The notes beneath the pieces are model-generated. The model was given only the letters and a program-made list of their open reading frames with translations, was not told the DNA's origin and did no database searches. A stretch of 64,000 nucleotides of DNA, taken from positions 290,041 through 354,040 of the forward strand of contig NW_005201338.1 of the NCBI RefSeq assembly GCF_000372725.1, read 5' to 3'. This document shows, in pieces, positions 869 to 24,063 of the stretch (its first letter is position 1; the number at the start of each line of letters is the position of its first letter). The translations under genes and the position numbers were made by a program. The stretch comes from Emiliania huxleyi CCMP1516. Taxonomy: Eukaryota.

Positions 869-1713
869 TCGCCGTGCGAGGGCCGGATCGCTTCGGCAAA
901 GAGGTTGATTGCGGCGCAGCAGTCGTCGAGCTGCTCGCCGTGGGCCTGCGTCGCCTGCTGCACGGGGAGCAGCTGCGCGGCCAGCTCCCGGATGAGCGAG
1001 CGCAGCTCCGTTCGCGACGCCTCGTGCGCCTCGCTCAGTGCCGTCAGCATGAGCTCGTGCCGCTTCGCCGCCCGCTTCAGCTTCTCGTTGCCGCGCAGGA
1101 AGGCGTCGCCGGTGCCAAAGGCGGCGACGCGCGCGGCGAGGCTGTCGAGCTTGAGGGCGAGCTCGTCCACCGCCGACCGCAGGCTGCTTGCCACCTGCTG
1201 CGCCGCCGCCTGCTCCGAGGCGCCGCTGGCGTTGAGCGCGGCATGCCTCTGCGCAAGACCGGCGAGCTCCGCGCGCACGTCGCTGAGCAGCCTCGAGTGC
1301 TCGGCGACGCCCTTCTCCAGCCGCGCCGACGCGTTGGAGAGGCAGCTCTGCTCCGATCGCACGATCGCGAGGTCGCGCCCGGTGCCATCTCGCTGCAGCT
1401 CACCACGCACCGCCTCGAGACCGCTCTCGCACGCCGCCGCGCGCGAACGCAGGGCGACCACCTCGCACGCCACGGCCTGAACCTCGCCAGACAGGGCGCT
1501 CTGCCGGCTCGACGCCGCCGCCGCGTTGTCATCGACGCGCTCGCCGAGCAGCTTGACCTCACCACTCAGCGCGACCACCGCCGTTCGAAGCTCCTCGTTC
1601 TCCGTACGGCTCTCGTAGAGCGCTTGCCAAAGAGCCTCGCTGTCCGCCTCCCACTTCCTGGCCTGCCGCTCGAGGGCGCGCCTGCCGTCGTCCCGCTGGG
1701 CCTTTTGATACAT
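676..1713 (-). CDS. Hypothetical coiled-coil protein
   Basis: 345-aa ATG ORF, heptad-like A/E/L/R-rich sequence, poly-Ala from a (GCG)n tract. Confidence 0.65.
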
Positions 1714-1871
1714 GTGTGTCGGGTGGCTCCGCTGTCTCTCGCCAACGCCAGTTGGGGCGAGGGAGAATTCTACGACGACAAGCCCCTCTCACAGCAGACT
1801 GGCACGAACTAGCACCACAAAAGGCACAGCGAGGGAGAATAGAGAATTTTACAACCGAACTCCGTCGCACA

Positions 1872-1940
1872 ACACTGGGCACGGGACTGGCGAGCACTGG
1901 CACTAACACAGGTACACCGAGAATAGAGAATTTTACAACC
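1872..1940 (+). repeat. Dispersed repeat family A (GGGCACGGGACTGGCG[C/A]GCACTGGCACTAACACAGG)
   Basis: Near-identical copies at 5973-6012(-), 23727-23795(+) and 62835-62950(-); variants at 52552-52602 and 62968-63035. Confidence 0.85.
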
Positions 1941-1950
1941 GTGGCACGAA

Positions 1951-2460
1951 GTGACATGGAGACACGTCAAGGGGCACAGTGGTCATAAGTGGAACGACTA
2001 CGTCGATAAACAAGCCGACCTCGGCAGGAGCGGCGCGAGGGATTGCGGCGCGCCGGAGTGGCAGGACGAGTCTGTCCCAACAGACGCAGACGACGGGGAG
2101 AGCAGCACCGTGGGCGACGACATGCCTATCAACGGAGGAGCAACAACCATCCCACTCGACGACATCGGTGATGGGGCCTCTAGCTACGCCGATGACCCAC
2201 CCGACTCCCCCGAAAACGAACCGCCGCCTAGCGCCCCGCCCTCGCCGCCAAAAGCCCCAATCGTGGAGCAGGGGATGATATGGATTTCATACACGCCGAG
2301 CGCGCAGGCGCGACACATCGGAGACAACAAGGGGATCCGGCGTGAAAGAGCTATCGACGTTGACGTCGACCCAGCCGATTCCACCGATGTCGACGTCATC
2401 ACCTCCGCGGCCACCGCGCTTTCGCTCGACGACACCGTGGAGAATGTATCGCACCGAGGA
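1951..2460 (+). mobile_element. RNase H C-terminal fragment, probably a non-LTR retrotransposon remnant
   Basis: TWRHVKGHSGHKWNDYVDKQADLG matches the RNase H1 W.HVKGHSG...N..AD..A motif; N-terminal catalytic part absent; right boundary approximate. Confidence 0.65.
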
Positions 2461-2937
2461 CCTTGCCGAGGCGATGCATGGGCCGGATCACTTTGGACCC
2501 CGACCCCGCCCCCACCCCTCGGGGTGGGGGCACCCGCCCCTGTCGGGCACCGCTTGCGGCGCCTGGCAGGGGCACCCCCTGGGTGGGGGCCGGCGATTCC
2601 CATGCCGGCTCTCCGCCACAACCCCCGCCGGGAGGGAATCCCTGCTCACAGAAAAGGGCTCCGAGCCCTGTCTCGCGCACGCCCCTGGCGGGCGCCGCGG
2701 ACCAGTTCCGCGAGCGCTCGTCAGCGGGTGGTGTGCGGTTTTTGCCGTAGTTCCTCTTCGGTCGCCTAGCCCCGGCGCCGTCTGTCGGACGCCTGCGTGT
2801 CACGAGTGCGTGTCACGAGTCTCTCTCGAGTGCGAGCCGCTCGCGGCTCGTACGCCCGCTTGCGGGTTCGAGTGGCGGGCCATAAAATTCGTGCCGGCGA
2901 CGCGTGCACTCTTTGCTCTTTTGTGTGCGACACCAAG

Positions 2938-3993
2938 ATGGCGTGCCCAGACTGCGGCTCCTCGGACCTTGTCGAGGAGGAAGGGATGGCGATATGTAGC
3001 TCCTGCGGATCGGTGCTCGATGCGAACGCTCTCCTTTATCCACACGAGTTCAACCCAGCGTCCACGAATTATCGACGTCCACAGCAGCTGAGATCTGGCC
3101 CGAACGTGGCGCGGGAAGAAGCACGCAAGGAGCAGCGTGCACAACGGGAGGCAGCGCGCGAGGAGGAGCGCGCCCACAAGGAGGCGGCGCGGAACAAAGC
3201 GCGAGAGGAGGAGCGCGCCCACAAGGAGGCAGCACGGAACAAAGCGCGAGAGGAGGAGCGCGCCCACAAGGAGGCAGCACGGAACAAAGCGCGAGAGGAG
3301 GAGCGCGCCCACAAGGAGGCAGCACGGAACAAAGCGCGAGAGGAGGAACGTGCACAGAAGGAGGCAGCCAAAGCAGAGGAGGTGGCGCAGAAACGCGCCC
3401 GCGAACGCGACGCGGAGCTTGAGGCAGAGGCAGCGCTCGCCGTCAGGTGGAGGGAACTCGCAGCATGGCAGCAGCAGAAGGCGCGGGCGAAGGCCTCGCA
3501 AGCGCCCTCGCAAGCGAGCGTGCAAGCGGCCGCTGCCAGAGCAGCCGAAGCCGCAGCGCAGGAGCGGGAGGCTGCCAAGAGGGCAGCCCGAGAGGAGGCA
3601 GAGTTGTGGCAGTCCCGCCTGAAGGAGCAGCAGCAGGCGCAGCTCAAGGAGGCCGGCCTCCGACAGCAAGCTCTCTTGCGCGAGGCGCGGCTGCGGCAGG
3701 CTGCGCGGCAAGTGGCGACCGGTGCGCCAAGCGCGTATGGCAGCTTTGACGACGCATACAAATCCGTCGACGACCTCTCCACTGACGAGCTCGTGAGACA
3801 TGTGCTCGCGCAGGCGGAGTGCCCGTGGAAGTGCTTGTTTCTTGCCCCGCACGCGCCGCCTGATGAGGTTCGCAAGAGATACAAGCAGCTCGTGTTGCGC
3901 CTTCATCCTGACAAGACGGATCAGGTGCAGGCGGCGCAGGCTTTCGCAGCCGTTGAGTCTGCTTACCAACGGCAACGCATGATTCGGCAATGA
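2938..3993 (+). CDS. TFIIB-type zinc ribbon + charged 15-aa repeats + C-terminal J-domain protein
   Basis: ATG 2938 MACPDCGS...EEGMAICSSCGSVL (CxxC...CxxC); REEERAHKEAARNKA repeats; KRYKQLVLRLHPDK...AFAAVESAY (HPD). Confidence 0.8.
   Translation: MACPDCGSSDLVEEEGMAICSSCGSVLDANALLYPHEFNPASTNYRRPQQLRSGPNVAREEARKEQRAQREAAREEERAHKEAARNKAREEERAHKEAARNKAREEERAHKEAARNKAREEERAHKEAARNKAREEERAQKEAAKAEEVAQKRARERDAELEAEAALAVRWRELAAWQQQKARAKASQAPSQASVQAAAARAAEAAAQEREAAKRAAREEAELWQSRLKEQQQAQLKEAGLRQQALLREARLRQAARQVATGAPSAYGSFDDAYKSVDDLSTDELVRHVLAQAECPWKCLFLAPHAPPDEVRKRYKQLVLRLHPDKTDQVQAAQAFAAVESAYQRQRMIRQ
3155..3370 (+). repeat. 45-bp coding tandem repeat, ~4.5 copies
   Basis: gcgagaggaggagcgcgcccacaaggaggcagcacggaacaaagc repeated in tandem. 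Confidence 0.9.
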
Positions 3994-4302
3994 TATGTGT
4001 AGACGGGCTGGGTGCTGCGCTCTCGTCACTCTGGCCACCTCGCTCTCAGCCTCTCACCGCACACACGCGGCACCGGCGCTTGGCCTTGCCTGGAGTGTTT
4101 TGTTGTCAATACGTGAACTCCAAAAGTACCGCACCCACGATACGGCACGATTCGAATATGAGGAGGGCAGATCCGCCCGCCTCGCACTCCGGAGGAGGGA
4201 CGTCGGCAGTCGCCCGTTTGCGTGCCGTCTGCGGCACGCGGCCGTGCTCCCGACCGCTGGCTCGCCACCCGGAGCGAGGCGGCCCCGGCGCACACCCCGC
4301 GG

Positions 4303-5586
4303 TCAGCTGACGGGCGGCGGCGCGCGGAGGCTGGTGCCGGAAGGGTGCTCCGGCGGCGCCGTCAGCGGCGAGGCGGTCTCGAGGAAGGGGCGCGGCGGGA
4401 GGGTGGCGGCCTCGACGGTCTTGTAGCTGAGGGGGGTGTTCGGGTCGTGGTCGTCGATCTCGCGCACCTGGTAGTCGACGTGCACAAAGCAGCGGTCCAC
4501 CTGCTCCAGCCGCTCGATCTTGTGCTGGAGCATGATTCCCACGTCGTGCGACACGCGCAGCGGCGTCTCGGGCAGCATCACGATCTCAATCTCGACGAGG
4601 AAGCGCGGCCCAAAGTGGTACGCGCGCACGAGGTCGAGGCTGGCGGCGGGGTCGTGCGTCTCGGCCATCTCGCGCACCTGGTCGAGGAACTCCGGGTCGG
4701 CGGAGCGGCCGACGAGGAACTCGAGTTGCTCCATGCCGGTGCAGAGCCACGAGTGGATAATGTACACAGAGATGGCGACGGCGCCGACGGGGTCGGCGAG
4801 CCAGAGGGAGGGGGAGAGCTGCGTGAGCACCGCGGCGGCGAGGGCGCCCAGGTTGGAGAGGACGTCGTTCAGGTGGTCCTGCGCCACCGCCTCCACCGTC
4901 ACGTTGTTGGTCTCTGCAAACTTTGAGCGGCACCAGAGGTAGAGCACAAACTTGAGCGCGATCGTGCTCGCGAGCAGCCCGAGGTCGTAGTAGGTCATGT
5001 CGACCGGGCGCACGTCGCCGTGCTGCCAGTAGCCGTACAGCGACACCAGCGCGTCGCGGATCACCTGCGCGCTCGCCATCGCCATCAGCAGCGCGCACGC
5101 GATGACGCCGACCGGCTCTGCGCGCGAGCGGCCGGCCGGGTAGAGGACCTTGGTGGCGCCTTGCTGGTCGGTCGCCAGACGGTTGGTGACGAGCAGGATG
5201 GCCTGCGCGAGCAGGTCGACAGTCGAGTCGACCAGCGCCGCGAGGACGACCATCGCGCCCGACGAGAGGTACACCCACAGCTTGGAGCCAAACAGCAGCA
5301 CGTTGACGACGAGCGACACCATGTGCACCCGGCGCGAGAGGGCGTCGCGCAGCTCGCCTCTCCGGAAGGTGGTGAGGCTCGCCTTGGAGTAGCGAGAGAG
5401 CACCGACCGAGACACGCCCGACCGGATCGACGCCGTGTCCTCGGCCGGTCGGTGCACCTCGATGGTGGCGTGCTGCTGGTGCGGGTGCTGCTGGTTGCTG
5501 CTGTGCAGCGGCAGCGACAGGGAAGCGCCGTCGGGCATGAGCGGTGCCGTGAGCGACTCGAGTCTCCGCGGCGGCGAGCGGGACAT
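4303..5586 (-). CDS. Cation diffusion facilitator, Mn-CDF (MTP8/MTP11-like)
   Basis: Multiple TM helices with DSTVD and DHLND (DxxxD) metal motifs, YPAGRSRAEPVG, and a C-terminal VRAYHFG...VEIEIV...HDVG...CFVHVDY domain. Confidence 0.9.
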   Translation of the reverse strand: MSRSPPRRLESLTAPLMPDGASLSLPLHSSNQQHPHQQHATIEVHRPAEDTASIRSGVSRSVLSRYSKASLTTFRRGELRDALSRRVHMVSLVVNVLLFGSKLWVYLSSGAMVVLAALVDSTVDLLAQAILLVTNRLATDQQGATKVLYPAGRSRAEPVGVIACALLMAMASAQVIRDALVSLYGYWQHGDVRPVDMTYYDLGLLASTIALKFVLYLWCRSKFAETNNVTVEAVAQDHLNDVLSNLGALAAAVLTQLSPSLWLADPVGAVAISVYIIHSWLCTGMEQLEFLVGRSADPEFLDQVREMAETHDPAASLDLVRAYHFGPRFLVEIEIVMLPETPLRVSHDVGIMLQHKIERLEQVDRCFVHVDYQVREIDDHDPNTPLSYKTVEAATLPPRPFLETASPLTAPPEHPSGTSLRAPPPVS

Positions 5587-5972
5587 TGCGCGGCTGCAAC
5601 ACCGAGCAAGGCAAGCAGAAGTGCACAAAAGAACTCTCGCGGTGTGCAGATAGGCTCGACACAGAGAATTTGCAAAAAACTGAACCCTGCTCGTTTGGGT
5701 TCGTCGGTCTTCTTTCTTTCTTACTCCCTCGCACAAAAGAACGTCCGACTATGCGACTAGCACACCTCAAGATTCCCAAGAAACCCGAGGACTCACACAG
5801 TCCCTGTGTGATGCACGCACGCCCTGCGAGCGGGGCGGGGTGCGCGCTGTGCCTCTCTCTGTGTTCGTGCGTCGCCCATCTCTCCTGGAGATGCCTGCTC
5901 TAATTATTTATCTATAAAAGACTTTTACGAGTACGCTCTCTGGTCGCAGGAGTCGCTAGGCGCGGCTCCCGT

Positions 5973-6150
5973 GGTGTACCTGTGTTAGTGCCAGTGCGCG
6001 CCAGTCCCGTGCTAGTGTCAGAGGGAGTTTTACACTATAAGCGACTCCTGCGAGGACGGCGAGGCACTTAGCTCCGTGCACTGACCGCCCTCGCCGCAGG
6101 CTACAAGCTCATTCACAACCTGCTGGTGCCAAAAGAAATCTACGAGTCAC
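5973..6150. repeat. Family A copy (-) abutting a short LINE-like remnant
   Basis: Reverse family A copy; the following taagcgactcc...gcacttagctccgtgcac resembles 20610-20755 and 52605-52740. Confidence 0.6.
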
Positions 6151-6628
6151 GACACTAGGAGTCACAAAAGAAACCCGCGCCCCTGGTTTCTTTCTTCCGT
6201 GTGTGTGCTAGACCTAGAGTACCTCCCCAGCAGCGGTCCCCCGGAGGCTGTGCCTCCAGCTGGTTGTACAGGTCCGTGCTTTGGTTTCACAACGCGTTTG
6301 GTCCTCGCTATGGTACGGCTCACCAGATGCGACAGGAGGGCTAAAATCCGGAATATAGACTGCCAAGAGGGTGCTCTAGGCCGCGAAGACACCACACACG
6401 GTCTCCCTACTCATGCGCGGCTAGCAGGAGGGTGCCAAAAATGAGGCGCGTTGTGAAACCGCAGCTGGCCCCGCCGACGGGTAGCACAGGTCATGAGTGA
6501 GGCCACGCCAGCTGCCTCGGGTGCTCTGTGTGGTCGGCCTGGACCGTGCCGCAAGCCTCGAGCAGCGGAGAAGCGCTGTCCTTGAAGTCCAGACATGCTT
6601 CGCCGCCGTGGCGCAGCGCCGCAGTGGC

Positions 6629-6670
6629 CAGTGCGAGCGAGCACTGCAGCTGCAGTGCTCGCTCGCACTG
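6629..6670. repeat. Perfect 42-bp palindrome
   Basis: cagtgcgagcgagcactgcag|ctgcagtgctcgctcgcactg. Confidence 0.95.
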
Positions 6671-6779
6671 CGGCACCCATCGACTCCCTGCGCTCCGGGC
6701 ACATTGGCAAATGTGCCGGCGGCCTTGTGGACGGCTCGGGCACGAATTGCACGACGGCGCGGCGTCTCGAGGCGGCCGT

Positions 6780-9230
6780 GTTGTGAAAACGAAGCTGTTG
6801 CGAAACCGAAGCCCGGACCTGTAGAGCAGATCCATCAGCTGCGTCGCGTTCTCCACGATGAGCACCTCCGGGTACCGCCCTCGCCACTGCCCCCTCGCAA
6901 CGATCCGCGCGATCTGCTGCACTCTGGCTCGAGCAGTCTCCATCTCCAGCCAGATCGCCTGCCACCGCCAGATATCCGTCTCCCTCTGTCTCACCCGCCA
7001 CTTGCTCGCCGCTGCGCGCCGCACCTCCGCCGCACGGTGGTTAACGAGGTCGGCCTCCGCCTGGGCGCTCAGAGCTTCCGCCCCAGGCTCCTCCATCGGC
7101 CGGGCTGGCGTGTCACCGCTGGTCGCCCCTGCAACCGGCCGCCGGTTCCACATCAGCCAAGGCATCGCCGCGAGTCGGGCGCCCGCACTCGTCTGTGTCT
7201 CCGAGAGGAGCTGCAGCGGAGCCCACTCCCCCCCTCTCACTCGCGCCGCATCAACAAACTCCCGCCAGAAGGCCGGGCCGACCCCATCTGGACGGCCGGC
7301 AAAGACTTGCGCCCTATGGAAGAACATGTGCAGGCCACCCGATATCACCTCGAGCGTTGCGTCCGTCCACCTGCCGTGATCCTCTGCTCGGCCGCGCTGC
7401 TCTGCCTCCGCCCGAGCCCGCCCCAGGATATCGCCGTACGCCCGTCCCAAGCGCACCGCTGTCTCCTCGTCGTCGACGGCCGCCGCCGCCAACTTGATCT
7501 GGAGCCACCCGACCGCCACGAGACGCGGCGACAACAGCAGGAACGGCGAGAACGTCGCGGCCCTCCTCCTCCTGCACCATCCCCTCGGGTTGGAACGCCT
7601 CAGCCAACCGCCGTTCCCATGAGCGCGTCTCCGCGGAGTCTGCCGCCTGCCACAGGAGTGGGCACGTCTTGTCGCCAACCTCGGCGTCGACGGTAGCGCC
7701 GCCGTTAAAGTGGGTCAGGTGCGTCGTTGAAAGGCCGTTCCCGCGTAGTATGCCCGCCACGTCTCCGGCGCCAGGCACGCTGAAGTCGACGACGGTGGAG
7801 TCGGCCGAGATAGTGAGGACGAAGACCGCATCCTCGTTCACGTCAAGTGACACCGCCACGTCTCGCCGGAAGGCGGCGGCAAACGCGTCGCGCGAAGTGG
7901 CGGCGACCGACCTCGTGGGCGAGGCTCAATGTCACGGTCGCCTCGCTCGCCGGCGCCGGGATCTTTGGTGCAGCTTCTCGGTCGCAGGCCCTCTCCAGGT
8001 CGGCCATCAAGGCCCGGATCTGAGCGAAGATGGCCGCGTCGGTCCCGTCCGTGTATGTGCGGATCACAGTAGCCCCGGGACGGGGGCGGGGCGGGCCTCA
8101 CCCGGGACTCACCCCGAGACCCCACCCCGGGACGCGCCGGCTGCGGGTGAGGCCCCACCCCCGGGGCAGTGAGGGGCAGGGGCGGGGCGGAGCTCCTCAG
8201 AGTGAGGCGCCCCGGGTGCCCCCCCACCCCCGCCACCCCGCCCCCCGGGCACCCGACCCGCCCTCAGCTCTCAGCTCCCCACCACGCAAGGTGCAGCGGA
8301 CCGACCTGGTGGGCAAGCGGATGATGAAGACCTTTGGCGGCCATGGCACCTTCGTCGGAGATATCGTCTCTTACGACCCGGAGACGGGATGTTACCAGCA
8401 GGTCACCTATGAGGACGGCGACAAGGAGGGCCTCTCGCGAGCCTCTGTCCAGGCTGGCGTGCGGCGATTCCAGGCCCAGGCAAAGTGATGCGATCCGTCT
8501 CGCCGAGGCGCGCTTTTTTGCGTCCGCCTCGGTAGATGTTAGTAGTTAGAGACTTTGTGCGTTTGGAGCAGTGCGGACTGTCTGTGCAGAGTAGAGTGGG
8601 GTCTCACCCGTTTAGTTGATTTGTAGTATTGTTCTGTGTGAGCGGTGGTGCCGCACAGGCCGCTCTCCCTCGCCTCGGCGGTGTGCGGGTGGTGCCGCGG
8701 CGTGGCGCGGGCCGGGGGCGCGCGGTAGGCGTACGGGGCCGCGTGCGCGTGGCCCGCCCGTGGTGCCCCTGGCTGGGTCGGGCAGCGAGCACCCCCCCGG
8801 GACGGCGCATCGCGAGTGAGGCCCCGGGGTGGGGCAGGTGAGGGAGGGGGCGGGGACGGCCGGGCCCCGGTGAGCCCCGGGTGAGGCCCGACCCCCCCCC
8901 GTCCCGGGGCTACTGTGATAAGCACATGAGGCCGCAGTTCGCCTTCCACAGCCGATGCTCCACTAACGGCTCGAGAATGCCGTCATCTGTCGACGCCAGT
9001 TCCGGTAGGGCCCGTCGCCCCCACTCCAGCAGGTCGGCGATGGCGTCGCACATTAGCAGCCCGAGCGACGGCGCCATCCTCTCCGAGCTCACCGGGTTCG
9101 CGACGACTCCCGCCAACCAGGTCGCGTCCGCAACATTGGACCGGAGAACAAAGGTGAGCGCGAGGAGCTTTGCATCGAGCCGAGGGAGACGCTGTGTAGT
9201 CCTTTCCGTGCTCAACGAGCTGGTCGGTTG
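6780..9230 (-). pseudogene. Possible frameshifted, MITE-interrupted gene of unknown family
   Basis: Successive protein-like minus-strand ORF pieces in different frames (8910-9230, 7843-8067, 7314-7859, 6491-7678). Confidence 0.4.
8065..8917. mobile_element. Non-autonomous TIR element carrying a Tudor-like fragment
   Basis: ~48-bp imperfect TIRs CACAGTAGCCCCGGGACGGGGG.../...GTCCCGGGGCTACTGTG, AT on both flanks; internal DLVGKRMMKTFGGHGTFVGDIVSYD...VTYEDGDKE. Confidence 0.8.
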
Positions 9231-9231
9231 A

Positions 9232-12200
9232 ATGGAAGATCCTGAGCAAACGGAGCGCGTGACGACAGCAGCTATTGACGGCGATGTCGATGCACTGCGC
9301 TCGCTCGCTGAACAGTGCGGCAGCAAGGTGCTGATGGCAGCTTCGGCAGACGGCAGCACACCGGCACACGCCGCCGCTGCAAACGGCCGACTCGACGTGC
9401 TCCGCTTACTTGTTGAGCAGTGCGGCCCAGAGGTGTTGACGGCTGCGGCGGCGGACGGCAGCTCGCCAGCACACGCCGCCGCTGCGAACGGCCACGTCGG
9501 CGTGCTCCGCTTCCTCTGTGAGCAGTGCGGGCCAGAGCTGCTGACGATTGCGATGGCGGACGGTGTGACGCCCGCGTACGCCGCCGCCCTCGGCGGTTAC
9601 GTCGACGCGCTCCGCTTCCTCTCCGAGCAGTGCGGCAGCGAGGTGCTGACGGCCGCGAAAGCGGACGGCGGCATGCCAGCGCACGCCGCCCTTGGTGGCC
9701 ATGTCGACGCGCTCCGCTTCCTCGTTGAGCGGTATGGCAGCGAGTTGCTGACGGCTGCTGTTGCGGGCGGCAGCACGCCAGCTCACGCCGCCGCACTCAA
9801 CGGCCATGTCGACACGCTCCGCTTCCTCGCAGAGCAGTGCGGCAGCGAGGCGCTGAGCGCTGCGGACGTGGCTGGCTGGACCCCAGTGCAGACCGCCGCT
9901 CTCGGTGGCCATATTGAGGCGCTCCGCTATCTCGCCGATCAGTGCGGCCTTGAGCTACTAACGGCTGCGAGACCGAATGGCAGCACGCCAGCTCACACCG
10001 CCGCTTTTGCTGGCCACGCCGACGTGCTCCGCTTTCTCTCCGAGCAGTGCGGCAGTGAGGTGCTGACGGCTGCGAGGGCGGACAATTTGACGCCAGCTCA
10101 CGCCGCCGCTCGCAGAGGCAACACTGACGCGCTCCGCTATCTCTTCGAGCAGTGCGGGCCAGAGGTGCTGACGGCTGCGGATGCGGACAGTGTGACGCCA
10201 GCACACATCGCCGCTCTCGACGGCCATGTCGACACGCTCCGCTATCTCTTCGAGCAGTGCGGCAGCGAGGTACTGACGGCTGCGATCAAGGACGGGCGCA
10301 CGCCAGCTCACTTCGCCGCTGCGAACGGCCACGTCGACGCGCTCCGCTTCGTTGTGGAGGAGTGCGGCAGCGAGGTGCTGACGGCTGCGACGGCGGGTGG
10401 CAACATGCTCGCGAATGCCGCCGCTCTTGCCGGCCATGTCGACGTGCTCCGCTTCCTCTCCGAGCAGTGCGGCCCTGAGGTGCTTGTGGCAGCAAGTGCG
10501 AACGGCTTCAGGCCGGCGCACGACGCTGCGCAGGAGGGCCACGTCGACGCACTTCGCTTTATTGTCGAGCAGTGCGGCAGCGAGGTGCTGACGGTTGCCA
10601 GGGCGAATGGCAGCACACCGGCTCACGCCGCCGCTGCGAACGGCCATGTCGACGCGCTCCGCTATCTCGCCGAGCAATGCGGGCCAGAGCTGCTGACGGC
10701 TGCGAGGGCGGACAGTGCGACGCCAGCACACATCGCCGCTCTCGACGGCCATGTCGACGTGCTCCGCTTCCTCTCCGAGCAGTGCGGCAGCGAGGTACTG
10801 ACGGCTGCGATCAAGGACGGGCGCACGCCAGCACACTCCGCCGCTGCGAACGGCCACGTTGACGTGCTCCGCTTCCTTGTGGAGGAGTGCGGCAGCGAGG
10901 TGCTGACGGCTGCTGATGAGGGCGGTTGGACGCCCGCATACGCCGCCGCTCTCGAGGGCCATGTCGACACGCTCCGTTTCGTTGTGGAGCAGTGCGGCAG
11001 CGAGGTACTGACGGCTGCTGATGAGGACGGTTGGATGCCCGCGTACGCCGCCGCTCTCGGCGGCCATGTCGACACGCTCCGTTTCGTTGTGGAGCAGTGC
11101 GGCAGCGAGGTGCTGACGGCTGCGATCAAGGACGGGCTCACGCCAGCTCACTTCGCCGCTGCGAACGGCCACGTTGACGCGCTCCGCTTCGTTGTGGAGG
11201 AGTGCGGCAGCGAGGTGCTGACGGCTGCGACGGCGGGTGGCAACATGCTCGCGAATGCCGCCGCTCTTGCCGGCCATGTCGACGTGCTCCGCTTCCTCTC
11301 CGAGCAGTGCGGCCCTGAGGTGCTTGCGGCAGCAAGTGCGAACGGCTTCAGGCCGGCGCACGACGCTGCGCAGGAGGGCCACGTCGACGCACTTCGCTTT
11401 ATTGTCGAGCAGTGCGGCAGCGAGGTGCTGACGGTTGCCAGGGCGAATGGCAGCACACCGGCTCACGCCGCCGCTGCGAACGGCCATGTCGACGCGCTCC
11501 GCTATCTCGCCGAGCAATGCGGGCCAGAGCTGCTGATGGCTGCTGATGAGGACGGTTGGACGCCCGCATACGCCGCCGCTCTCGGCGGCCATGTCGACAC
11601 GCTCCGCTATCTCTTCGAGCAGTGCGGCGGAGAGGTGCTGACGGCTGCGATCAAGGACGGGCGCACGCCAGCACACTCCGCCGCTGCGAACGGCCACGTT
11701 GACGCGCTCCGCTTCCTTGTGGAGGAGTGCGGCAGCGAGGTGCTGACGGCTGCTGATGAGGACGGTTGGACGCCCGCATACGCCGCCGCTCGCAGAGGCC
11801 ATGTCGACACGCTCCGCTATCTCTTCGAGCAGTGCGGCAGCGAGGTGCTGACGGCTGCTGATGAGGACGGTTGGACGCCCGCATACGCCGCCGCTCGCAG
11901 AGGCCATGTCGACACGCTCCGCTATCTCTTCGAGCAGTGCGGCGGAGAGGTGCTGACGGCTGCGATCAAGGACGGGCGCACGCCAGTACACTCCGCCGCT
12001 GCGAACGGCCACGTTGACGCGCTCCGCTTCCTTGTGGAGGAGTGCGGCAGCGAGGTGCTGACGGCTGCTGATGAGGACGGTTGGACGCCCGCATACGCCG
12101 CCGCTGTCAATGGCCAGGTCGACGTGCTCCGCCTTCTCGCCGAGCAGTGCGGCAGCGAGGCGCTGACGGCTGCGAATGCGAACGGCTACACGCCAGCGCA

Positions 12201-15200
12201 CAGGGCCGCTGCGCATGGCCATGTCGACGTGCTTCGCTTCCTCGCCGAGCAGTGCGGCAGCGAGGTGCTGACGGCTGCGATCAAGGATGGCGACACGCCA
12301 GCGCACGCCGCCGCTGACAGTGGCCATGTCGACGTACTCCGCTTCCTCTCCGAGCAGTGCGGCAGCGAGGTGCTGACAGCTACGAACGCGGGTGGCTGGA
12401 CCCCGGTGCACAGAGCTGCTCTCGGTGGCCACGTCGACGCTCTCCGCTATCTCGCCGAGCAATGCGGGCCAGAGCTGCTGACGGCATCGGACGGCAGTAG
12501 TCCAGCGCGCATCGCCGCAGTAAGGGGCAAGGTTGACGCACTCCGCTTCATCGTCGACCTGTCAGCCCAGTCGATTCCTACCGTTCTTCTCGACGCGCTC
12601 AAGAGGAACTCTGAGCACGCTCCGCTCGCCCTCGCCTGGCAGTCCCTGCTCAGCAGCCAGAAGCCCTCATTCTTCTCCTCCCGACCCGACCCTGCAAAGA
12701 TCGAGGCTGCCCTCGCCGCCGCACGGGATGCAGGCGTTGCATCCAGCGAGCTTGACCGTGCAGCAGCTTTGCTACGTGACACAAAGCTGTTGCGCGCGCT
12801 CAACGGCCGCCCTGCCCCCAAGCTGCTGCTATCGACCATCGCGAGCAATGGCCCTGGCGCGAACAAGGCGGTTGTGACGCTGAGTGGCCTACTCGACCCG
12901 CAGAACATGCTGCTCAGTTGGGCGGCGCTAACGGCAGTCGCTGAGAGCCCTGATTTGCCATCTGACGTTCTCACGCCGCTTCTCTCGTGCTTGACGCGCG
13001 CCCGCGCTTACTGGTCGCCCGATGGATGGTCTGAGGACGCAATTGAGTGGGTTACGGCCGCTCTCGCGGCACTCGAAGCCAGCTTCCTCGTTCGCAGCGG
13101 CCCGTTTGAGAACTACCCGGACCTCATCCACGCCCGTCTCATCGGTCTGATGCAAACGACGACGCCCGAGCATCTGCGAGTTCGTGCCGCCTTCGTGCTG
13201 AGCCACGCATACACGCGAGGCTACCCCGCCGATGCGGCCAGCTTCGACGCCTCCGATGCTGCTGGTCTTCTCGCTCGCTCGGTGCGGATCAGTGCCGCTT
13301 GCTCGCCGCCCGCGGTGCTCGCGTCGGCCGCCGGCTTTGCACTGGTCGCCGCAGCCACGGCGGGCTTTGCTGCCGCGCAGCGTGCGCTGGCCAGCCTCGC
13401 TAGCGACAGCACGCTTGGCATTCTGCTTGGCGCGACGATCAGCGTGCCTGCCAACTGCGCCGTCCTGTGGGCGTCGCTCGACCCTGTGCAGCGGTGCATC
13501 GACTTTTACCCGCGCGCGATTGCGCAGCAGCTCGAGGCGGCGCTCGGCAGCGGCAAGGACCGCTGCATGCTCGGCGCCGACTTTTTCAACGCGACCGTCC
13601 ACCTCCCGCCGGACGGCGGCTTTTACCAGACCACGCTCGGGCAGCACATGGGCCGCTCGGGCTATAAGGCGCCGGGCTTCCGCTCGGCGTGCCGCATCGT
13701 GCACCCGCGCAGCGCGCGCACGGTGACGCTGCACGGGCGTCGCGTCCAGGGAGAGTGGCGCCTCGCAGAGAGCGGCGACGACGCCGAGTACAGCTTTGTC
13801 GAGGTCGCGCCGGCGCACTGCATGCTGTGCCGTGAGGCGGCGGAGGAGCTTACGTCCTTGCGTTGGCCAGCCGCTTTGGTTGCAATCGTACATGCCATCC
13901 TCAACGGCACCCAAGGCGGACTCTCCGCAGAGGTTGTGGGTGCCCTGCTATCATGCGCCGGACCAGCGGAGCTGCCTGAGCCTATACATTCCGGCGACTG
14001 GCTCTGCGATGCTGCAGCGCTCCTGTTTGCTGGCCTAAGTGAGCTCGAACACACTAAGGAGACTGCGGAGCTCGTCAAGGCGGCGCGCTGGGTCTGGGAG
14101 CACGCGGCCCAAAGCCGGCTGCTTCGCGACGGACACCCATGGCAGCCACTACTTTTGCAGAGCATGCAGCGCGCCGCCGACCGCATTGAGGAGCTTGAGG
14201 CTCGTGCGGCTAGGCATGACCAAGAGGATCTGCTGCAAATCGTGAGCGGCGCTGTGGCGGTGGCAGAGGTGGCGACAAAGCATTGCGCAGTCGGCGTCGT
14301 CGACTCGGCTCCCGCCCGCATCCTGAGTGAGCTTCGCAGCCTCGAGCGTACTTTGCAGAACGAAAAGTTCGAGCTGATGGTCTACGGCGTGTACAGCGTT
14401 GGCAAGAGCAGGCTGCTGCAGACAGGCTACCCGGGTCTGAAGAATATGCTGCCTGTCTCCTCTAAGGAGTGCACCGCGCACCTGATCAAAATTGACGTCG
14501 GCAGTGATGGCCAGCGCGGCGAAAGCGATGCCGAGCTACATTTCGACTGGCAGTCCGTTGTTAAAATGGACTCGACGCTGCGCGATTTGCTTCCAGACAA
14601 GGTTCGCCGCTTTCTTGAGGAGCCGCACGTCCGAGAGTTCATCGATGGCTTTCTGATGGAAGACGAGCAGCAATCGCCCCCAACGTTACCGCTTTCAGAG
14701 GAGGAGGTCAGCGCGTGGGCTCGCGTCGATGGCGGCAGCGATAGTACGAGCATCAAGGCCCTTGCTAGCGTGGTTGATCACATCGCGGTCAGCGTCACGG
14801 TAGACGCCGACTGCCCGCGGTACAACATCATCGACGCCCCTGGGCTTGGGGCCGACAAGAGCCGACGCGACATCGCAGAGCGCCACCTGCGCAAGTGTGA
14901 CGTGCCCATCGTCATCGCCTCCTTCATCGACCTCAGCCTCGAGCCGCTTCAAGAGGCGCTGCGGCAAATCAAGGCCAGCGGCCATCAGCCAATTATCGTC
15001 ATCACGAAGCTCGACGAGCAGTACACGCGGCTCGGTGAAGACCATCCCAGCCAAGACCTGTCCGCCCTTATGGAGGCAAGTATGGCGGACGCACGGCGGA
15101 TCTTCGTTCAGGCCGGTTTCCGAGAGTCAGATGTCCACTTCGTTTCCGCGTACTGGTTCGAGTTCTCGAAGGATCGGCAACGTGCTGCGCGAGTGCGCGC

Positions 15201-18117
15201 CGCGCTTGAGACTGCGGGTCTGCCGTCCGACGAGGACGAGTCGACTGCTCGCGAAACCCTGCGCCGCCTATCCGGGATCGACGCCTTTTGGGATGCCGTC
15301 GACGAGCTAGTCATGCGCGATGCGGCCAGACGACGTGCTGGGAGGGTTTGCGAAGAGCTGGCGCAGCACCTCTCCCAGCTGCTTGGCATGCTCCTCGACC
15401 AGGACGGCTTGCTGAGCGGAGTCAGGCCAAACGCGGATGATCCAGAGTGGCGTGCCGACGTGCAACGCACTTCCGTGGCAGCTAAGGGGACTCTCGATGC
15501 AGCGCTAGACGCGATGCAGTCCGAGTGCTCCGACGCAATCGCAGAGACTGCCACGCGGATGCGGAAGGGGCTGACGGAGCTGGTCCTCGAGCTTCAGAAG
15601 ATGTGTGCCGGGGGATCCACCATCGACCAGCTCTCAGCTCGCCTGCAGCAGCGCTTTGCCGAGCTGCAGCAGACGCTTGCCCCTTACCAAGGGTGGGAGA
15701 TGGCGGGAAATAAGATGCGAGACCATCTCGAGCGTGCAGGTGAGCAGCTGGCCGAGCTGCTTCGAAAGCACTTTCCCGGCTCCGTCCACTCGCTGCTGCT
15801 TTCGTCGTCGCAGCTGCAAACGCCTGCAATCACCGATGCGCCCTCGAGTATCACGACGCCCAACGTCACGCGGAATGTGGCGGGTGCAGTTGCAGGGGCT
15901 GTGCTCGAGATCGTCGCCCTCTGCGCGCTCCCAGTCATTGCAACAGCGATTACCGGCGGCGCCGTTGCGCCGCTCCTAGCCCCGGTGGTAAGGAGTGCAT
16001 TACCGAGTGCAGTGGCTGCTGGCATTCAAGTCTACCAGGCCGAGGCCGGACGCGACCTGCCTGCGGAGTGGGTGCGCGAGTGCGAGGAGGCAAAGAGCGG
16101 GTGGATCCGAGACTTTGAGCGCGGTCTTCGTCGCCAGCTGGAGGTCTGGAGGCGGCAGGTGAGCGCAGCTGTTGTCAGTCAACTCGATAGCTGGATCGAT
16201 GGCATTCAGGCAGCAGCCAGCCTGCCCCCTGATCAGCTCCAGCCTTCCCAGGCTGACATCCGTGCCGCCGGCGAGCAAGGACAGGTACTGCTGTCGGATG
16301 CTGTCGCGTTGCTGGATCGCCTCAGCGGTAATGTTGTCTCGGATGGTGCAGAGATCAACATTGTGCGCCTCGGTGCTCGCGTGCGACGGCTGAAAGCGAG
16401 TGCCAAACGATGGCTCGACATCGATCTGCAGCTTGCCGATCCCTCAGAGGAAGCGGCGCGTGAGCGACGGGAGGATACCCAAAGGCAAACCACAGACAGC
16501 TACGCCTTTCTTGCATCGGTCCTGACGACTGAGCTCCGGCGCCATGGCTCGGAGCTCGAGGCGACTCAGACGCTACGAGCGCCATCAAGCCGCCCGCAGC
16601 CCCCGCAGCCCCCGCAGCCCCCGCGTGGCGCTCCTCGTCCCACGGCTGCAGCGCAGGAGATCGCGCGGCACGCGCTCCTGGCTCGGCTGAGCGATGAGGT
16701 ATACTCTCGACACGACGCGGGTGAGGTGCTCTTCTTGAAGAGCGCCGATGACCCGAGTGTCGACGAGCAGGTGGAGGTGCTGCACTTCAGCTCTGCTGGC
16801 GGCGGCACCTGGAAGGTGCCGCAGTGGGCAGTCTTCCGTACCGCAGGCCGCGCTGACGGCGACTTTGTGGCTCTCGTCTTCAAAGGCACGGAGGCCCCGA
16901 CCGAATGGGTGGTGGACTTTGCGTGTGTGTCTCGCGAGGCCGGCGGCGGGCTGAAGCTCCACGCCGGCATCTCTGGCAACTTGCGATCGCACATCGCGGC
17001 TGTGGAGTCCGCGATCGCCCGCTCGACGACAGACGCCGGCGCTCTGCCGCTCTACTTCTCCGGCCACTCGCTCGGAGGCGCGTACGCCATGTGCGCCTTC
17101 TACATGGTTGCGCCGACTCTCTCGCAGCGGGTCGCCGGCGTTGTCGGATTTGGTGCCCCGCTCGTGACCGTCGCCGGAGGCCCGCCCGAGATCGTGCTGA
17201 CGGCTAAGCTGCGGTTCTTGACCTACGTGTCGGGCAACGACATCGTGCCACGCTCCCTGTTCAAGCCGAATGCTGAGAAGTTGCTCGCCTTTGCTCGCCG
17301 TTTGGGCAAGAGCCAGGCATTGTCTACCGTCTCCAACGCCATGCCGACATTTGACATGATTGGCCAGTTCCGCGCGCTGCCGGGAGCGGTCGAGCGACCC
17401 CCTTCCGAGCTGCTGCGGATTCGGCCAGATGCGCCGCTGACGTCGCACATCGACGACCACGCGTGCCGCGGCTATGCACGACTGCTTGATGAGTGCGCAC
17501 TCGAGCTGCTGCCGAGTGCTACGTCCACACCGATGGCACCGGCACCGTCACCGACGGAGGCGGCGGTGGTGGTGATGTCGGCGGCGGCAGCGGCGGCAGC
17601 GGCGGCAGCGGCAACAGCAGCGTTGGCGGAGACAGAGGCGCGGACGGCGGGGACGGCGACGGCGTCTACGTCTATCGAGGCTCCTTTCCCGACGGCGCAG
17701 CAGGAGCTGGCGCAGGCGCTCGAGGCGTCGGAAGGACGGTCGCAGGTGGCTGAAGATCGTGACCTGGCGCACGGCATCGAAGAGTCGCTTCGAACCGACG
17801 GCCCGTCCCCCTTCGCTTCGGCCGCCGCCGCCGTACAAGGCGAGGCGGGCTCAATGGGCTCCTCCATGTCAGTTTCAGCGGCCGAGTCAGCGTCGACGGT
17901 GCAAGCATCCCCGATGAACTCTCCTCGAGGGCGGGCAATGGTGGCGCTTCTCGAGGACGCTAAGCTCACCGCTTATGCGAGTGTGCTGCACGATGCCGGA
18001 TATTATGAGCTGACTGATCTCAGAGAGGCCGACGACGCAGACCTCGGCGAGCTCGGAGTGGGACTCAAGAAACCCGAGATCAAAAGATTGCGACGCTATC
18101 TCGAGAAACAAGTCTGA
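9232..18117 (+). CDS. Giant multidomain protein: ankyrin array - WWE-like - dynamin-like GTPase - hydrophobic hairpin - class-3 lipase - SAM
   Basis: Uninterrupted 2961-aa ORF; TPAH.AA..GH repeats; G1 GVYSVGKS (14386), G3 DAPG (14833), G4 TKLD (15004), FVSA; lipase FKGT, GHSLGG (17062), FGAP, NDIVP; C-terminal SAM-like YASVLHDAGYYELTDL...LGELGVGLKKPEIKRL. Confidence 0.9.
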   Translation: MEDPEQTERVTTAAIDGDVDALRSLAEQCGSKVLMAASADGSTPAHAAAANGRLDVLRLLVEQCGPEVLTAAAADGSSPAHAAAANGHVGVLRFLCEQCGPELLTIAMADGVTPAYAAALGGYVDALRFLSEQCGSEVLTAAKADGGMPAHAALGGHVDALRFLVERYGSELLTAAVAGGSTPAHAAALNGHVDTLRFLAEQCGSEALSAADVAGWTPVQTAALGGHIEALRYLADQCGLELLTAARPNGSTPAHTAAFAGHADVLRFLSEQCGSEVLTAARADNLTPAHAAARRGNTDALRYLFEQCGPEVLTAADADSVTPAHIAALDGHVDTLRYLFEQCGSEVLTAAIKDGRTPAHFAAANGHVDALRFVVEECGSEVLTAATAGGNMLANAAALAGHVDVLRFLSEQCGPEVLVAASANGFRPAHDAAQEGHVDALRFIVEQCGSEVLTVARANGSTPAHAAAANGHVDALRYLAEQCGPELLTAARADSATPAHIAALDGHVDVLRFLSEQCGSEVLTAAIKDGRTPAHSAAANGHVDVLRFLVEECGSEVLTAADEGGWTPAYAAALEGHVDTLRFVVEQCGSEVLTAADEDGWMPAYAAALGGHVDTLRFVVEQCGSEVLTAAIKDGLTPAHFAAANGHVDALRFVVEECGSEVLTAATAGGNMLANAAALAGHVDVLRFLSEQCGPEVLAAASANGFRPAHDAAQEGHVDALRFIVEQCGSEVLTVARANGSTPAHAAAANGHVDALRYLAEQCGPELLMAADEDGWTPAYAAALGGHVDTLRYLFEQCGGEVLTAAIKDGRTPAHSAAANGHVDALRFLVEECGSEVLTAADEDGWTPAYAAARRGHVDTLRYLFEQCGSEVLTAADEDGWTPAYAAARRGHVDTLRYLFEQCGGEVLTAAIKDGRTPVHSAAANGHVDALRFLVEECGSEVLTAADEDGWTPAYAAAVNGQVDVLRLLAEQCGSEALTAANANGYTPAHRAAAHGHVDVLRFLAEQCGSEVLTAAIKDGDTPAHAAADSGHVDVLRFLSEQCGSEVLTATNAGGWTPVHRAALGGHVDALRYLAEQCGPELLTASDGSSPARIAAVRGKVDALRFIVDLSAQSIPTVLLDALKRNSEHAPLALAWQSLLSSQKPSFFSSRPDPAKIEAALAAARDAGVASSELDRAAALLRDTKLLRALNGRPAPKLLLSTIASNGPGANKAVVTLSGLLDPQNMLLSWAALTAVAESPDLPSDVLTPLLSCLTRARAYWSPDGWSEDAIEWVTAALAALEASFLVRSGPFENYPDLIHARLIGLMQTTTPEHLRVRAAFVLSHAYTRGYPADAASFDASDAAGLLARSVRISAACSPPAVLASAAGFALVAAATAGFAAAQRALASLASDSTLGILLGATISVPANCAVLWASLDPVQRCIDFYPRAIAQQLEAALGSGKDRCMLGADFFNATVHLPPDGGFYQTTLGQHMGRSGYKAPGFRSACRIVHPRSARTVTLHGRRVQGEWRLAESGDDAEYSFVEVAPAHCMLCREAAEELTSLRWPAALVAIVHAILNGTQGGLSAEVVGALLSCAGPAELPEPIHSGDWLCDAAALLFAGLSELEHTKETAELVKAARWVWEHAAQSRLLRDGHPWQPLLLQSMQRAADRIEELEARAARHDQEDLLQIVSGAVAVAEVATKHCAVGVVDSAPARILSELRSLERTLQNEKFELMVYGVYSVGKSRLLQTGYPGLKNMLPVSSKECTAHLIKIDVGSDGQRGESDAELHFDWQSVVKMDSTLRDLLPDKVRRFLEEPHVREFIDGFLMEDEQQSPPTLPLSEEEVSAWARVDGGSDSTSIKALASVVDHIAVSVTVDADCPRYNIIDAPGLGADKSRRDIAERHLRKCDVPIVIASFIDLSLEPLQEALRQIKASGHQPIIVITKLDEQYTRLGEDHPSQDLSALMEASMADARRIFVQAGFRESDVHFVSAYWFEFSKDRQRAARVRAALETAGLPSDEDESTARETLRRLSGIDAFWDAVDELVMRDAARRRAGRVCEELAQHLSQLLGMLLDQDGLLSGVRPNADDPEWRADVQRTSVAAKGTLDAALDAMQSECSDAIAETATRMRKGLTELVLELQKMCAGGSTIDQLSARLQQRFAELQQTLAPYQGWEMAGNKMRDHLERAGEQLAELLRKHFPGSVHSLLLSSSQLQTPAITDAPSSITTPNVTRNVAGAVAGAVLEIVALCALPVIATAITGGAVAPLLAPVVRSALPSAVAAGIQVYQAEAGRDLPAEWVRECEEAKSGWIRDFERGLRRQLEVWRRQVSAAVVSQLDSWIDGIQAAASLPPDQLQPSQADIRAAGEQGQVLLSDAVALLDRLSGNVVSDGAEINIVRLGARVRRLKASAKRWLDIDLQLADPSEEAARERREDTQRQTTDSYAFLASVLTTELRRHGSELEATQTLRAPSSRPQPPQPPQPPRGAPRPTAAAQEIARHALLARLSDEVYSRHDAGEVLFLKSADDPSVDEQVEVLHFSSAGGGTWKVPQWAVFRTAGRADGDFVALVFKGTEAPTEWVVDFACVSREAGGGLKLHAGISGNLRSHIAAVESAIARSTTDAGALPLYFSGHSLGGAYAMCAFYMVAPTLSQRVAGVVGFGAPLVTVAGGPPEIVLTAKLRFLTYVSGNDIVPRSLFKPNAEKLLAFARRLGKSQALSTVSNAMPTFDMIGQFRALPGAVERPPSELLRIRPDAPLTSHIDDHACRGYARLLDECALELLPSATSTPMAPAPSPTEAAVVVMSAAAAAAAAAAATAALAETEARTAGTATASTSIEAPFPTAQQELAQALEASEGRSQVAEDRDLAHGIEESLRTDGPSPFASAAAAVQGEAGSMGSSMSVSAAESASTVQASPMNSPRGRAMVALLEDAKLTAYASVLHDAGYYELTDLREADDADLGELGVGLKKPEIKRLRRYLEKQV
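9256..12560 (+). repeat. 105-bp (35-aa) ankyrin tandem array, ~32 units including caps
   Basis: Units counted in the translation; units 11-14 recur as 19-22 at an 840-bp offset. Confidence 0.95.
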
Positions 18118-18884
18118 AATTGTGGTGGTCCGAGCACCTCTCCTGCGACCTGGGCCGTAGCCCGTTCCCGACTGTACCGTATATTTACCGTGTAAATGCA
18201 TGAGCATGTGTGTACTGTACGGCTCTACGTGTGTAGGCTGCAAGCAGTTACGAGTAGATTTTTTTACTGATTACGCATCATCCCCCCCCACCCCGCCCTC
18301 GACTCAAGGGGCTGCCTTCCACCGTCGCTGCTCAGGCCGGGGGAGGGGGGGAGACCTCCTGTTCCTCGCGGAACGGGAGTAGGCCCCTCCTTGCCCGGTC
18401 TGCGATGCAGGGCGGTGGCCGTGCCATCTTCGCTTCACAAAGACCACGCCGCAATCGTCGCCGGCGCGCGACGCGTTCCCGTAGGCCGGACTGTCCTGGT
18501 CGAGAGTGTGTGCCGCCAAGGCGGGGCTACTCGGGGACAGTGCCGACGGGACGCGGCTCGAGAGACGACTCCCGCGAAAGCACGGCTGGCATCCGTGGCG
18601 TGGGGCTCGCCTTCGAAAAGTCGGGCATGGCTCTCCCCGCAACTCTATCGCTAACACGCGCGCACCACCGAGACTGTGGTGGGCGCGCTGCGGTCGCACG
18701 TCTACCTCCGTCATAGTGCCACGACGTGCGGCCTAGAATTAGCACACGCGCCTCTGCTTGCATACACTCATACATTGGATTGTCATCGCCTGTGAGTGCG
18801 AGATAGGGCTAGCAGTAGGCAGCTAGCCTCTGAGGAGGGCGTCCATAGACACCTCACTAGACCCCACACACGGTCTCGCCCGTG

Positions 18885-19215
18885 CCTCGCCGGCCGGAGA
18901 GATTGCTGGAGGTAGAGCAAGGTAGCCTGCTCTAGCCTCGCATGTCACTTCCTGTTGTCTGTTGTTTGTTGTGCCCTTGTTTGTTCTCTTGGCACCTTGG
19001 AGTGCTGGGGGGGGCGACAGGGAGGATATGGCCTTGAGTTATGTGTACGCCTACTCAGGGTGTGTGGCAGCCCGCTGGCTGTGTGTCTTGTGAGCCTGTT
19101 TGTGTCTGTGTGTCGCTCGTGCGTGTCGTCATCATCTGTCCAGCGTCCACGCATACCGCGTTGGTGTCCAGTCCGAGCCTGGCTGTTCTTCACCTTTCTA
19201 CCTACCTACCTACCT
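18885..19215 (+). mobile_element. Repeat family C: retroelement-like 3' end with (CTAC)n tail
   Basis: Inverted near-identical copy at 63046-63366; related ends at 19468-19640(-) with (ATCT)n and at 36808-36905. Confidence 0.75.
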
Positions 19216-23854: not shown

Positions 23855-24063
23855 ACGCAACAACCTCCTCCTTCGTCGTCCACCACACGCAGCAGATCTC
23901 CATGGCGGCGGTGGCGGGCGACGCCGACAACATCAACAAGCAGGCGCGCAATGAGCGTAAAGACTGGCTCAACTCCCCAGCGCGCGCCAATTGGGTCAAG
24001 AACAAGCAAGTGGCAAACGGCTTCTTACGCTCGGCCCCAGTGGGGGGCGCCCGCGCCGCCTAG
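23855..24063 (+). mobile_element. 3' fragment of a CRE-like non-LTR retrotransposon
   Basis: SSFVVHHTQQISMAAVAGDADNINKQAR; homologous to 27933-28290(-). Confidence 0.6.

Follow-up and report, generated by a model that had tools for sequence, protein, structure and literature searches.

The locus described here raises the question of why a long array of ankyrin (ANK) repeats should precede a dynamin-like GTPase and a lipase within a single gene of a GC-rich, unicellular marine eukaryote. The gene lies in a stretch of 64,000 nucleotides of Emiliania huxleyi CCMP1516 (assembly GCF_000372725.1, contig NW_005201338.1, positions 290,041–354,040), which is the window of this study, and it encodes the protein P0001. 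Its array, which forms the intronless N-terminal third of the protein, had been read in an initial annotation as a natural counterpart of the libraries of designed ankyrin repeat proteins (DARPins), diversified by shuffling. Our analysis confirmed that the array is real, with a near-constant scaffold and variable turn and helix-1 positions; the annotation had missed the GTPase–lipase–SAM body and a captured module that follow it, which together form the more unusual part of the protein. The reading we favor, with belief and doubt in about equal measure, is that the array acts as a variable sensor of non-self, that it is coupled to a membrane effector and that it is diversified by unequal crossover and short exchanges. 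The gene and the parts of its array are as follows:

9232..18117, forward strand: single uninterrupted open reading frame (ORF) of 2,961 aa (P0001), running ANK array, helical region, WWE-like insert, helical region, BDLP-class GTPase and stalk, Lipase_3, SAM
9256..12561, forward strand: ankyrin array, a partial N-cap followed by 31 units with a length of 105 nt or 35 aa, one residue fewer in unit 4 (34 aa), the last of them (31) forming the C-cap
10252..10696, forward strand: four-unit block, first copy (units 10–13), which mismatches its copy 840 nt downstream at 4 of 445 nt
11092..11536, forward strand: four-unit block, second copy (units 18–21), copy of units 10–13 at +840
11585..12141, forward strand: mosaic I/D units 23–27, recently amplified, with tracts at offsets of 105 and 315 nt

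Tandem Repeats Finder (TRF) returned a period of 105 with 30.6 copies at 9277–12485, and cutting anchored on EQCG yielded 31 units at 9310–12561, of which 29 internal ones measure 35 aa and unit 4 measures 34 aa, the C-cap completing the set. The units follow the G-TPxH-AA--G helix-turn-helix consensus by which ankyrin repeats are recognized, match Ank_2 at E=6e-169 and also align to ankyrin-1 and ankyrin-2. A 26-nt scaffold motif has 21 matches, every one inside the array, and none in 100 shuffles. Mean pairwise identity between units is 75% at the nucleotide and 66% at the amino acid level, and the 29 full units display 22 distinct surface signatures. All five turn motifs named by the initial annotation (IKDGR, DEDGW, RANGS, SANGF, TAGGN) and all six helix-1 pairs (AN, LG, RR, LD, QE, DS) were found in the array. 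The recombination of half-units was likewise borne out, DEDGW being paired with LG in units 17 and 22, with RR in units 24 and 25 and with VN in unit 27, as was the duplication of a block of four units 840 bp apart.

Several lines of evidence point to shuffling among these units. Near-identical tracts occur within the array at offsets of 105, 315, 840 and 1155 nt. The distance to the nearest sibling is 17–25 nt for the edge units 1–8 and 28–30 and 0–4 nt for many of the central units 10–26; close central units and distant edge units are the pattern that unequal crossover should leave. A test of the pairwise homoplasy index (PHI) type was significant on all sites in nine of nine settings (p=0.0002–0.004), and with whole codons permuted it gave p≤0.021 in seven of eight settings and 0.096 in the eighth. 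Unit 22, which differs from its nearest single unit at 10 positions, differs at only 4 when described as a two-parent mosaic. By inspection, it takes its 5′ end from unit 14 and its final 30 nt, at the 3′ side, from unit 9, with a DEDG turn as well; the two RR codons of unit 8 recur in units 24 and 25. The PHI-type tests, the mosaics and the near-identical tracts support the proposed shuffling by duplication and exchange, and the tests favor inter-unit exchange by unequal crossover or short conversion without being conclusive. Neither a template repeat with a reverse transcriptase nor a dedicated recombinase was present among the 30 other window ORFs scanned, and no copy of the ANK–GTPase–lipase gene was found elsewhere within the 64-kb window.

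The most variable unit columns were 16, 12, 25, 24, 35 and 21, with columns 30 and 33 varying too; column 35 is a scaffold position, yet it ranks among the most variable. The positions randomized in DARPins, which we take to be 2, 3, 5, 13, 14 and 33, correspond to unit columns 13, 14, 16, 24, 25 and 11 when counted from the turn glycine. The available part of PMC8229355 says only that the randomized positions lie on the concave face. As a set, these strict six columns are more variable than random six-column sets (p=0.003 on 20 non-redundant units, the value being attained by 4,670 of 1,623,160 sets), and to this extent the match to DARPin positions claimed by the initial annotation stands. 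It does not extend further: column 11 (DARPin 33) is almost invariant, 28 of the 29 units having Ala there; columns 12 and 21, the counterparts of DARPin positions 1 and 10, which are fixed in DARPins, are strongly variable here although outside the set; and the ratio of nonsynonymous to synonymous rates (omega) of the set is 1.0 on the all-site tree. Surface entropy exceeded scaffold entropy in all three other ANK proteins with enough units, so that greater variability of the surface is by itself ordinary. What stands out is a homogenized scaffold with surface diversity retained, scaffold entropy being 0.69 versus 1.40 in P0002 and surface entropy 2.28 versus 2.40 (29 versus 11 units compared). 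The comparison with a natural library fails on another point, the array being one long solenoid in one polypeptide and not a collection of separate binders.

Measured against the synonymous differences of the whole unit, pairwise pN/pS (the ratio of nonsynonymous to synonymous differences per site) was 0.39 (0.23–0.66) in the scaffold, which is under purifying selection, 1.44 (0.996–2.14) in seven surface columns and 1.18 (0.71–1.91) in the strict DARPin six. In codon models on the all-site tree, the seven-column set reached an omega of 1.63 (p=0.004), and model M2a was preferred over M1a with twice the log-likelihood difference (2dL) at 10.4, p=0.005 and omega2=2.1, the columns concerned being 12, 16 and 25. 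The scaffold-only tree gave 2dL=39.6 and columns 12, 16, 21, 24 and 25, with values that are probably inflated. Neutral simulations never reached the observed 2dL (0 of 42; 14 clonal, 28 with four recombining blocks), and none rose above 4.3. These tests support, without being conclusive, an omega above 1 at three to five surface columns, and point to modest positive selection at a few of them.

Variation between samples was assessed from 13 listed sequencing runs, eight of which contain at least half of the sampled words; seven were compared (all but X3, X4, X6, X10, X12 and X13), all as short-read contigs. No copy numbers or expression levels were derived from contig depths, the gene was not called absent from X7, X8, X12 and X13 on the grounds of their low or missing cover, and the pieces from X11, mostly short matches to unrelated ankyrins, were set aside. 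Long pieces of X1 match the window with 0 differences, unique sequence in X5, X7 and X8 shows substitutions, and deletions of 3 nt and 18 nt are common to X5 and X7. In one X7 contig (458 nt, depth 9), positions 10444–10656 run into 12442–12671 with 1 difference, which puts unit 13/21 directly against the C-cap; the skip is 1,785 nt, exactly 17 × 105, or nine units when the second block copy is taken as the starting point. At this joint, 44 letters are shared, which are found only at those two places, and the window's own junction of unit 30 to the cap is present in X5 and X8. Given this joint, unit order likely differs between samples; for the comparison of unit number and order that the initial annotation had proposed, it amounts to a hint, one alternative in-register joint in a short-read contig from one of the seven runs. 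X5 and the seawater run X9 hold in-register units with residues or combinations new to the window at the same columns, such as Trp at column 21 (judged by eye), and X5 also holds a cap-plus-linker copy diverged by 22 differences in 187 nt; these contigs are probably from paralogues. A 35-aa version of unit 4 in X1, X2 and X8 was considered as an allele and rejected, as it has a different flank and could stem from a paralogue. Separately, an opposite-strand joint of 10110 to 15399 (ANK unit to stalk region) was seen in X2 and X5 and could represent a rearranged paralogue or a pseudogene.

The remainder of P0001 consists of the following parts, where P0003 and L001 are relatives described below:

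12562..13440, forward strand: helical region without a Pfam family, parts of it common to P0003 and L001
13441..13848, forward strand: in-frame insert, the captured and putatively WWE-like first module of another gene (WWE + U-box), its identity to P0179 being 129/136 aa
14377..15012, forward strand: dynamin-like GTPase of the BDLP/mitofusin class (Pfam Dynamin_N, aa 1716–1927; G1–G4 motifs intact)
15013..16260, forward strand: helical stalk with a hydrophobic stretch at aa 2215–2253 (about 15874–15990)
16873..17460, forward strand: class 3 lipase (Lipase_3, E=7e-12, aa 2548–2676; GHSLG with Ser2613, Asp2670, His2743)
17944..18108, forward strand: SAM domain (SAM_TNK, E=7e-6, aa 2905–2959)

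A model of the GTPase and stalk, built from a 16-row alignment that held one bacterial dynamin-like protein (DLP), reached a predicted local distance difference test (pLDDT) score of 70. A Foldseek search with this model returned a dynamin-superfamily entry in every listed row, the best being bacterial DLPs, SynDLP, IniA and mitofusins (E 6e-11 onward), and a sequence profile also places the GTPase nearest the BDLP/mitofusin class. The hydrophobic stretch of the stalk is likely a membrane paddle, and the GTPase–stalk region matches LeoA of PADLOC at E=5e-14. A sequence search of the GTPase region alone against the PDB gave nothing meaningful, the NCBIfam scan gave no useful family, and a single-sequence structure model of the middle region, at pLDDT 42, was unusable. 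Judged by its sequence, the predicted lipase combines a GxSxG nucleophile with Asp and His, as expected of class 3, and these motifs are kept in three of three aligned relatives.

The insert aligns to aa 47–182 of P0179, a WWE + U-box protein, with 95% identity, and 11 of the 17 listed differences from this donor are silent. Its GC content at third codon positions (GC3) is 0.91 against 0.67–0.77 in the rest of the ORF, while four of five neighboring genes have 0.84–0.94. Donor-type contigs part from the window sequence at 13440 and 13849 in X1, X2 and X7, and window-type contigs span the right junction in X1, X2 and X5; for the left junction there was no bridging contig in the rows shown. The Pfam WWE match of the donor sits on its second module and P0181 has two WWE stretches; the first, captured module thus appears to be WWE-like. 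Other homologues of the donor gene are found largely in giant viruses. Viral contigs contain 13 of them at 32–41% identity (of 124 candidate stretches), in loci of 20–30% GC, and three of the four searched viral records bearing such homologues encode a capsid of nucleocytoplasmic large DNA viruses (NCLDV). No direction of transfer was readable from the donor-family tree, and the literature searched held no paper joining giant virus, WWE and U-box. The WWE + U-box E3 ligase family (L004–L016; P0179–P0183), seen in many giant-virus contigs and in this host, possibly represents a viral ADP-ribose-directed ubiquitin ligase.

Relatives of P0001 are scarce. No full-length homologue with E≤0.001 was present among the 7,984 candidates scored, only three close ANK relatives reached E≤1e-30 (33–47% identity), and about a dozen close fragments of the GTPase–lipase part were found among 1.84 billion representatives. 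L001 (57% GC) is 47% identical to P0001 over aa 1769–2753. It carries four ordinary ANK-like segments, apparently separated by introns (by eye; weak profile matches), followed by part of the helical region, the GTPase and the lipase, and lacks both the insert and the SAM domain. Its stretch 1300–6740 is decayed: several stops interrupt the frame and the P-loop is broken, a state that fits gene birth and death in this family. In three of four runs, an ANK unit (9859) is joined within one contig to 14193, a point shortly before the GTPase, and by arithmetic the X1 record lengths are compatible with an in-frame join. P0003 has ANK repeats spaced 34–36 aa apart followed by the same linker helix. 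Taken together, L001, the ANK-to-GTPase joint and P0003 indicate that the combination of ANK, dynamin and lipase is an older, modular family with fast turnover. A viral origin of the gene was considered and rejected, as viral contigs held no GTPase relative and no exact match to the ANK scaffold. An unrelated protein of 2,166 aa, P0052, contains repeated Lipase_3 and ANK modules and a C-terminal SAM domain, so that the ANK–lipase–SAM combination recurs elsewhere.

The domain order, the block duplications, the mosaic units, the purifying selection on the scaffold and the 95%-identical WWE-like insert are observed directly; a defense function of P0001 is inferred. In its favor speak the LeoA match, the viral homologues of the insert's family, and the lipase effectors and selected, length-polymorphic ANK arrays described in fungal NLRs. 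In the sensor reading, the concave ankyrin face would bind foreign proteins, the WWE-like insert could act as an integrated bait or an ADP-ribose reader, and the SAM domain and stalk would drive oligomerization; the GTPase would then dock on a membrane, which the lipase would damage. The outcome may be cell death or an attack on a viral or parasite compartment, with giant viruses as the likeliest target. We also put forward, as a doubtful but specific extension, that the gene could represent an undescribed antiviral receptor family of a marine microalga, in which a recombining ankyrin solenoid and a WWE-like bait trigger an Eleos/BDLP-type dynamin and a lipase that destroy the membranes of infected cells or virus factories, the bait stemming from an E3-ligase family that the host shares with giant viruses. 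If true, this would be NLR-like logic built on a dynamin in place of a signal transduction ATPase with numerous domains (STAND).

A number of observations weigh against the sensor reading. An N-terminal sensor with a C-terminal lipase reverses the NLR order, and an ordinary bacterial DLP (P0145) matches LeoA better than P0001 does, so the LeoA match is generic. The captured module has no Pfam WWE match of its own, with an Atlas lead to WWE clusters of only 0.78–0.80, and L001, the only long relative recovered, is decayed. The X7 joint is a single short-read contig with 44 shared letters, because of which a graph artifact is possible, and X8, from the same study, lacks it. The recombination test called for by the initial annotation, significant on all sites, is not significant on synonymous third positions alone (12–13 sites, p=0.41–0.95). 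The codon models are a custom implementation applied to 27 unique units, in which high GC3 may depress dS, and the seven surface columns were picked after the entropy table had been seen. The strict DARPin set has an omega of 1.00 on the all-site tree and a pN/pS of 0.84 against its own synonymous sites, and the closest unit pairs (≤8 nt) have a surface pN/pS of 0.91, with no nonsynonymous excess. The excess that had been anticipated at the surface is accordingly present at some columns (12, 16, 25) and absent from the strict set and the closest pairs.

The last of these points fit neutral concerted evolution, the likeliest of the alternatives, which we consider possible though unlikely. Here, unequal crossover expands and homogenizes the array, folding keeps the scaffold and the surface drifts; with a freely drifting surface, the DARPin-like pattern needs no selection for new specificities. 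The higher surface entropy in the other ANK proteins agrees with such drift, and the low GC3 of the ORF relative to four of five neighbors fits relaxed constraint. It is harder to reconcile with the M2a result, whose value none of the 42 null simulations attained, with an 8.9-kb ORF that is intact and keeps its catalytic motifs, and with the mostly silent differences between insert and donor.

P0001 might also serve housekeeping membrane remodeling, as a GTPase–lipase for lipid-droplet, plastid or vesicle fission or fusion whose ankyrin arm is a scaffold or ruler, an explanation we regard as improbable. The narrowness of the family and the quick turnover of its architecture, seen in L001 and the ANK-to-GTPase joint, speak against such a role, as do two runs with the same organism label that contain 0.00–0.01 of the sampled words, which is not proof of absence; a fold nearest to BDLP, SynDLP, IniA and mitofusins and the cover of the gene by contigs from several runs guessed to be RNA speak for it. 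That the gene is a transposon-assembled chimera or an assembly artifact without coherent function, its 840-nt duplication and insert being due to mis-joining or fragment capture, is very improbable, for although a terminal inverted repeat (TIR)-like element and a high-copy repeat flank it and no displayed contig spans the insert's left edge or the whole duplication, contigs of X1, X2 and X5 cross the right edge of the insert, the long X1 contigs show no differences, the two block copies differ at 4 nt, and the ANK–helical–GTPase–lipase order is also present in L001 at 47% identity.

The neighboring genes in the window are eukaryotic (KIF9 kinesin, Vps26, PP4R3), and matching metatranscriptome pieces (X9) and an MMETSP cluster member point to a marine origin. 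About 300 nt upstream of the gene, at 8055–8927, inverted ends of 59 nt (92%) surround most of an ORF (8030–8488) with a PTM/DIR17-like Tudor domain, and the element resembles a non-autonomous transposon that has captured a domain. Immediately 3′ of the gene, 18293–18400 is a high-copy repeat with very high summed depth in X5. Elsewhere in the window, a 101-nt inverted repeat pair (95%) at 23873–28057 encloses 4 kb including a 692-aa open frame without a Pfam match, a possible DNA transposon; a 223-nt dispersed inverted copy (98%) lies at 18989–19211 and 63046–63268; and an ORF at 2770–3993 has a zinc ribbon of the TFIIB type and a DnaJ domain together with 4.8 copies of a 45-nt tandem repeat.

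Returning to the sensor reading, we compared P0001 with known systems. Engineered DARPin libraries share with the array a constant scaffold and variation at the beta-turn and helix 1; unlike them, the array has a unit of 35 and not 33 aa, coincides with the randomized positions only partly, and holds its diversity among the units of one solenoid, alleles and paralogues. In plant NLRs with integrated domains, a module of a host gene lies in frame within a repeat–NTPase protein. The insert of P0001 is likewise an in-frame host module, whereas P0001 is not an NLR, its donor family is one that giant viruses also have, and a decoy role is putative. With BDLP, DynA, SynDLP, IniA, LeoA/LeoBC of Eleos and the mitofusins, P0001 shares the GTPase motifs, stalk, hydrophobic paddle, fold and LeoA profile match; it differs from the bacterial DLPs and Eleos in being eukaryotic, encoded by a single gene and fused to ANK, lipase and SAM. 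The paired arrangement of LeoA and LeoBC is not seen, as P0001 has one GTPase domain only and no second dynamin occurs among the 30 other window ORFs scanned. The available parts of two sources describe Eleos as antiphage and related eukaryotic GTPases as capable of antiviral activity (10.1101/2022.05.11.491447, 10.1101/2022.12.12.520048).

Brown-algal ROCO-LRR and NB-ARC-TPR candidate receptors, as far as the available part of PMC3341825 describes them, also combine an algal repeat array and a GTPase with repeat shuffling, diversifying selection, gene birth and death and a proposed defense role. In those receptors, every repeat occupies an exon of its own and exons are what is shuffled, whereas the array of P0001 is intronless with mosaics below the unit level, and its GTPase is dynamin-like, with no Roc or COR match on P0001. 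For fungal NLRs with conserved ANK arrays, the accessible portion of PMC4986451 reports that repeat number is polymorphic, that the concave face is under positive selection and that lipases occur as effectors; the initial annotation was right to draw an analogy to fungal repeats, and ANK-type cases are already published there. These receptors (the HNWD family; Podospora Pa_3_8560; sesB-like lipase and patatin NLRs) resemble P0001 in having a homogenized array within one exon, in the location of positively selected sites, which fall on the inner helix and the beta-hairpin, and in pairing the NTPase with a candidate effector of the lipase type; a change of repeat number is a putative further resemblance. 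In P0001, by contrast, the NTPase is a BDLP-class GTPase without a NACHT or NB-ARC Pfam match, the order is reversed, with ANK first and lipase last, the unit is 35 aa, and SAM and the captured module are added. Against the 0.85 conservation criterion of fungal NLRs (85%, at least 100 aa), the whole array scores 0.76 to its consensus, units 15–18 score 0.86 and the duplicated blocks 0.98–0.99, in an approximation that is not T-REKS.

In fungi and brown algae, sensors with shuffled repeats have been described whose core is of the STAND or ROCO type. If P0001 is a sensor, the same strategy arose on a bacterial-type dynamin with a lipase, and the locus, concrete and probably strain-variable, could be tested against virus susceptibility. 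To our knowledge, how unicellular marine eukaryotes recognize giant viruses is largely open. Independently of function, the array provides binder design with a natural ankyrin scaffold of 35 residues whose surface tolerates diversity. The literature searched contained no description matching this architecture, though a genome-paper supplement may include an annotated instance. Set beside the known systems, the idea of shuffled ANK repeats is already known; the dynamin–lipase core with a captured, virus-shared module appears to be new.

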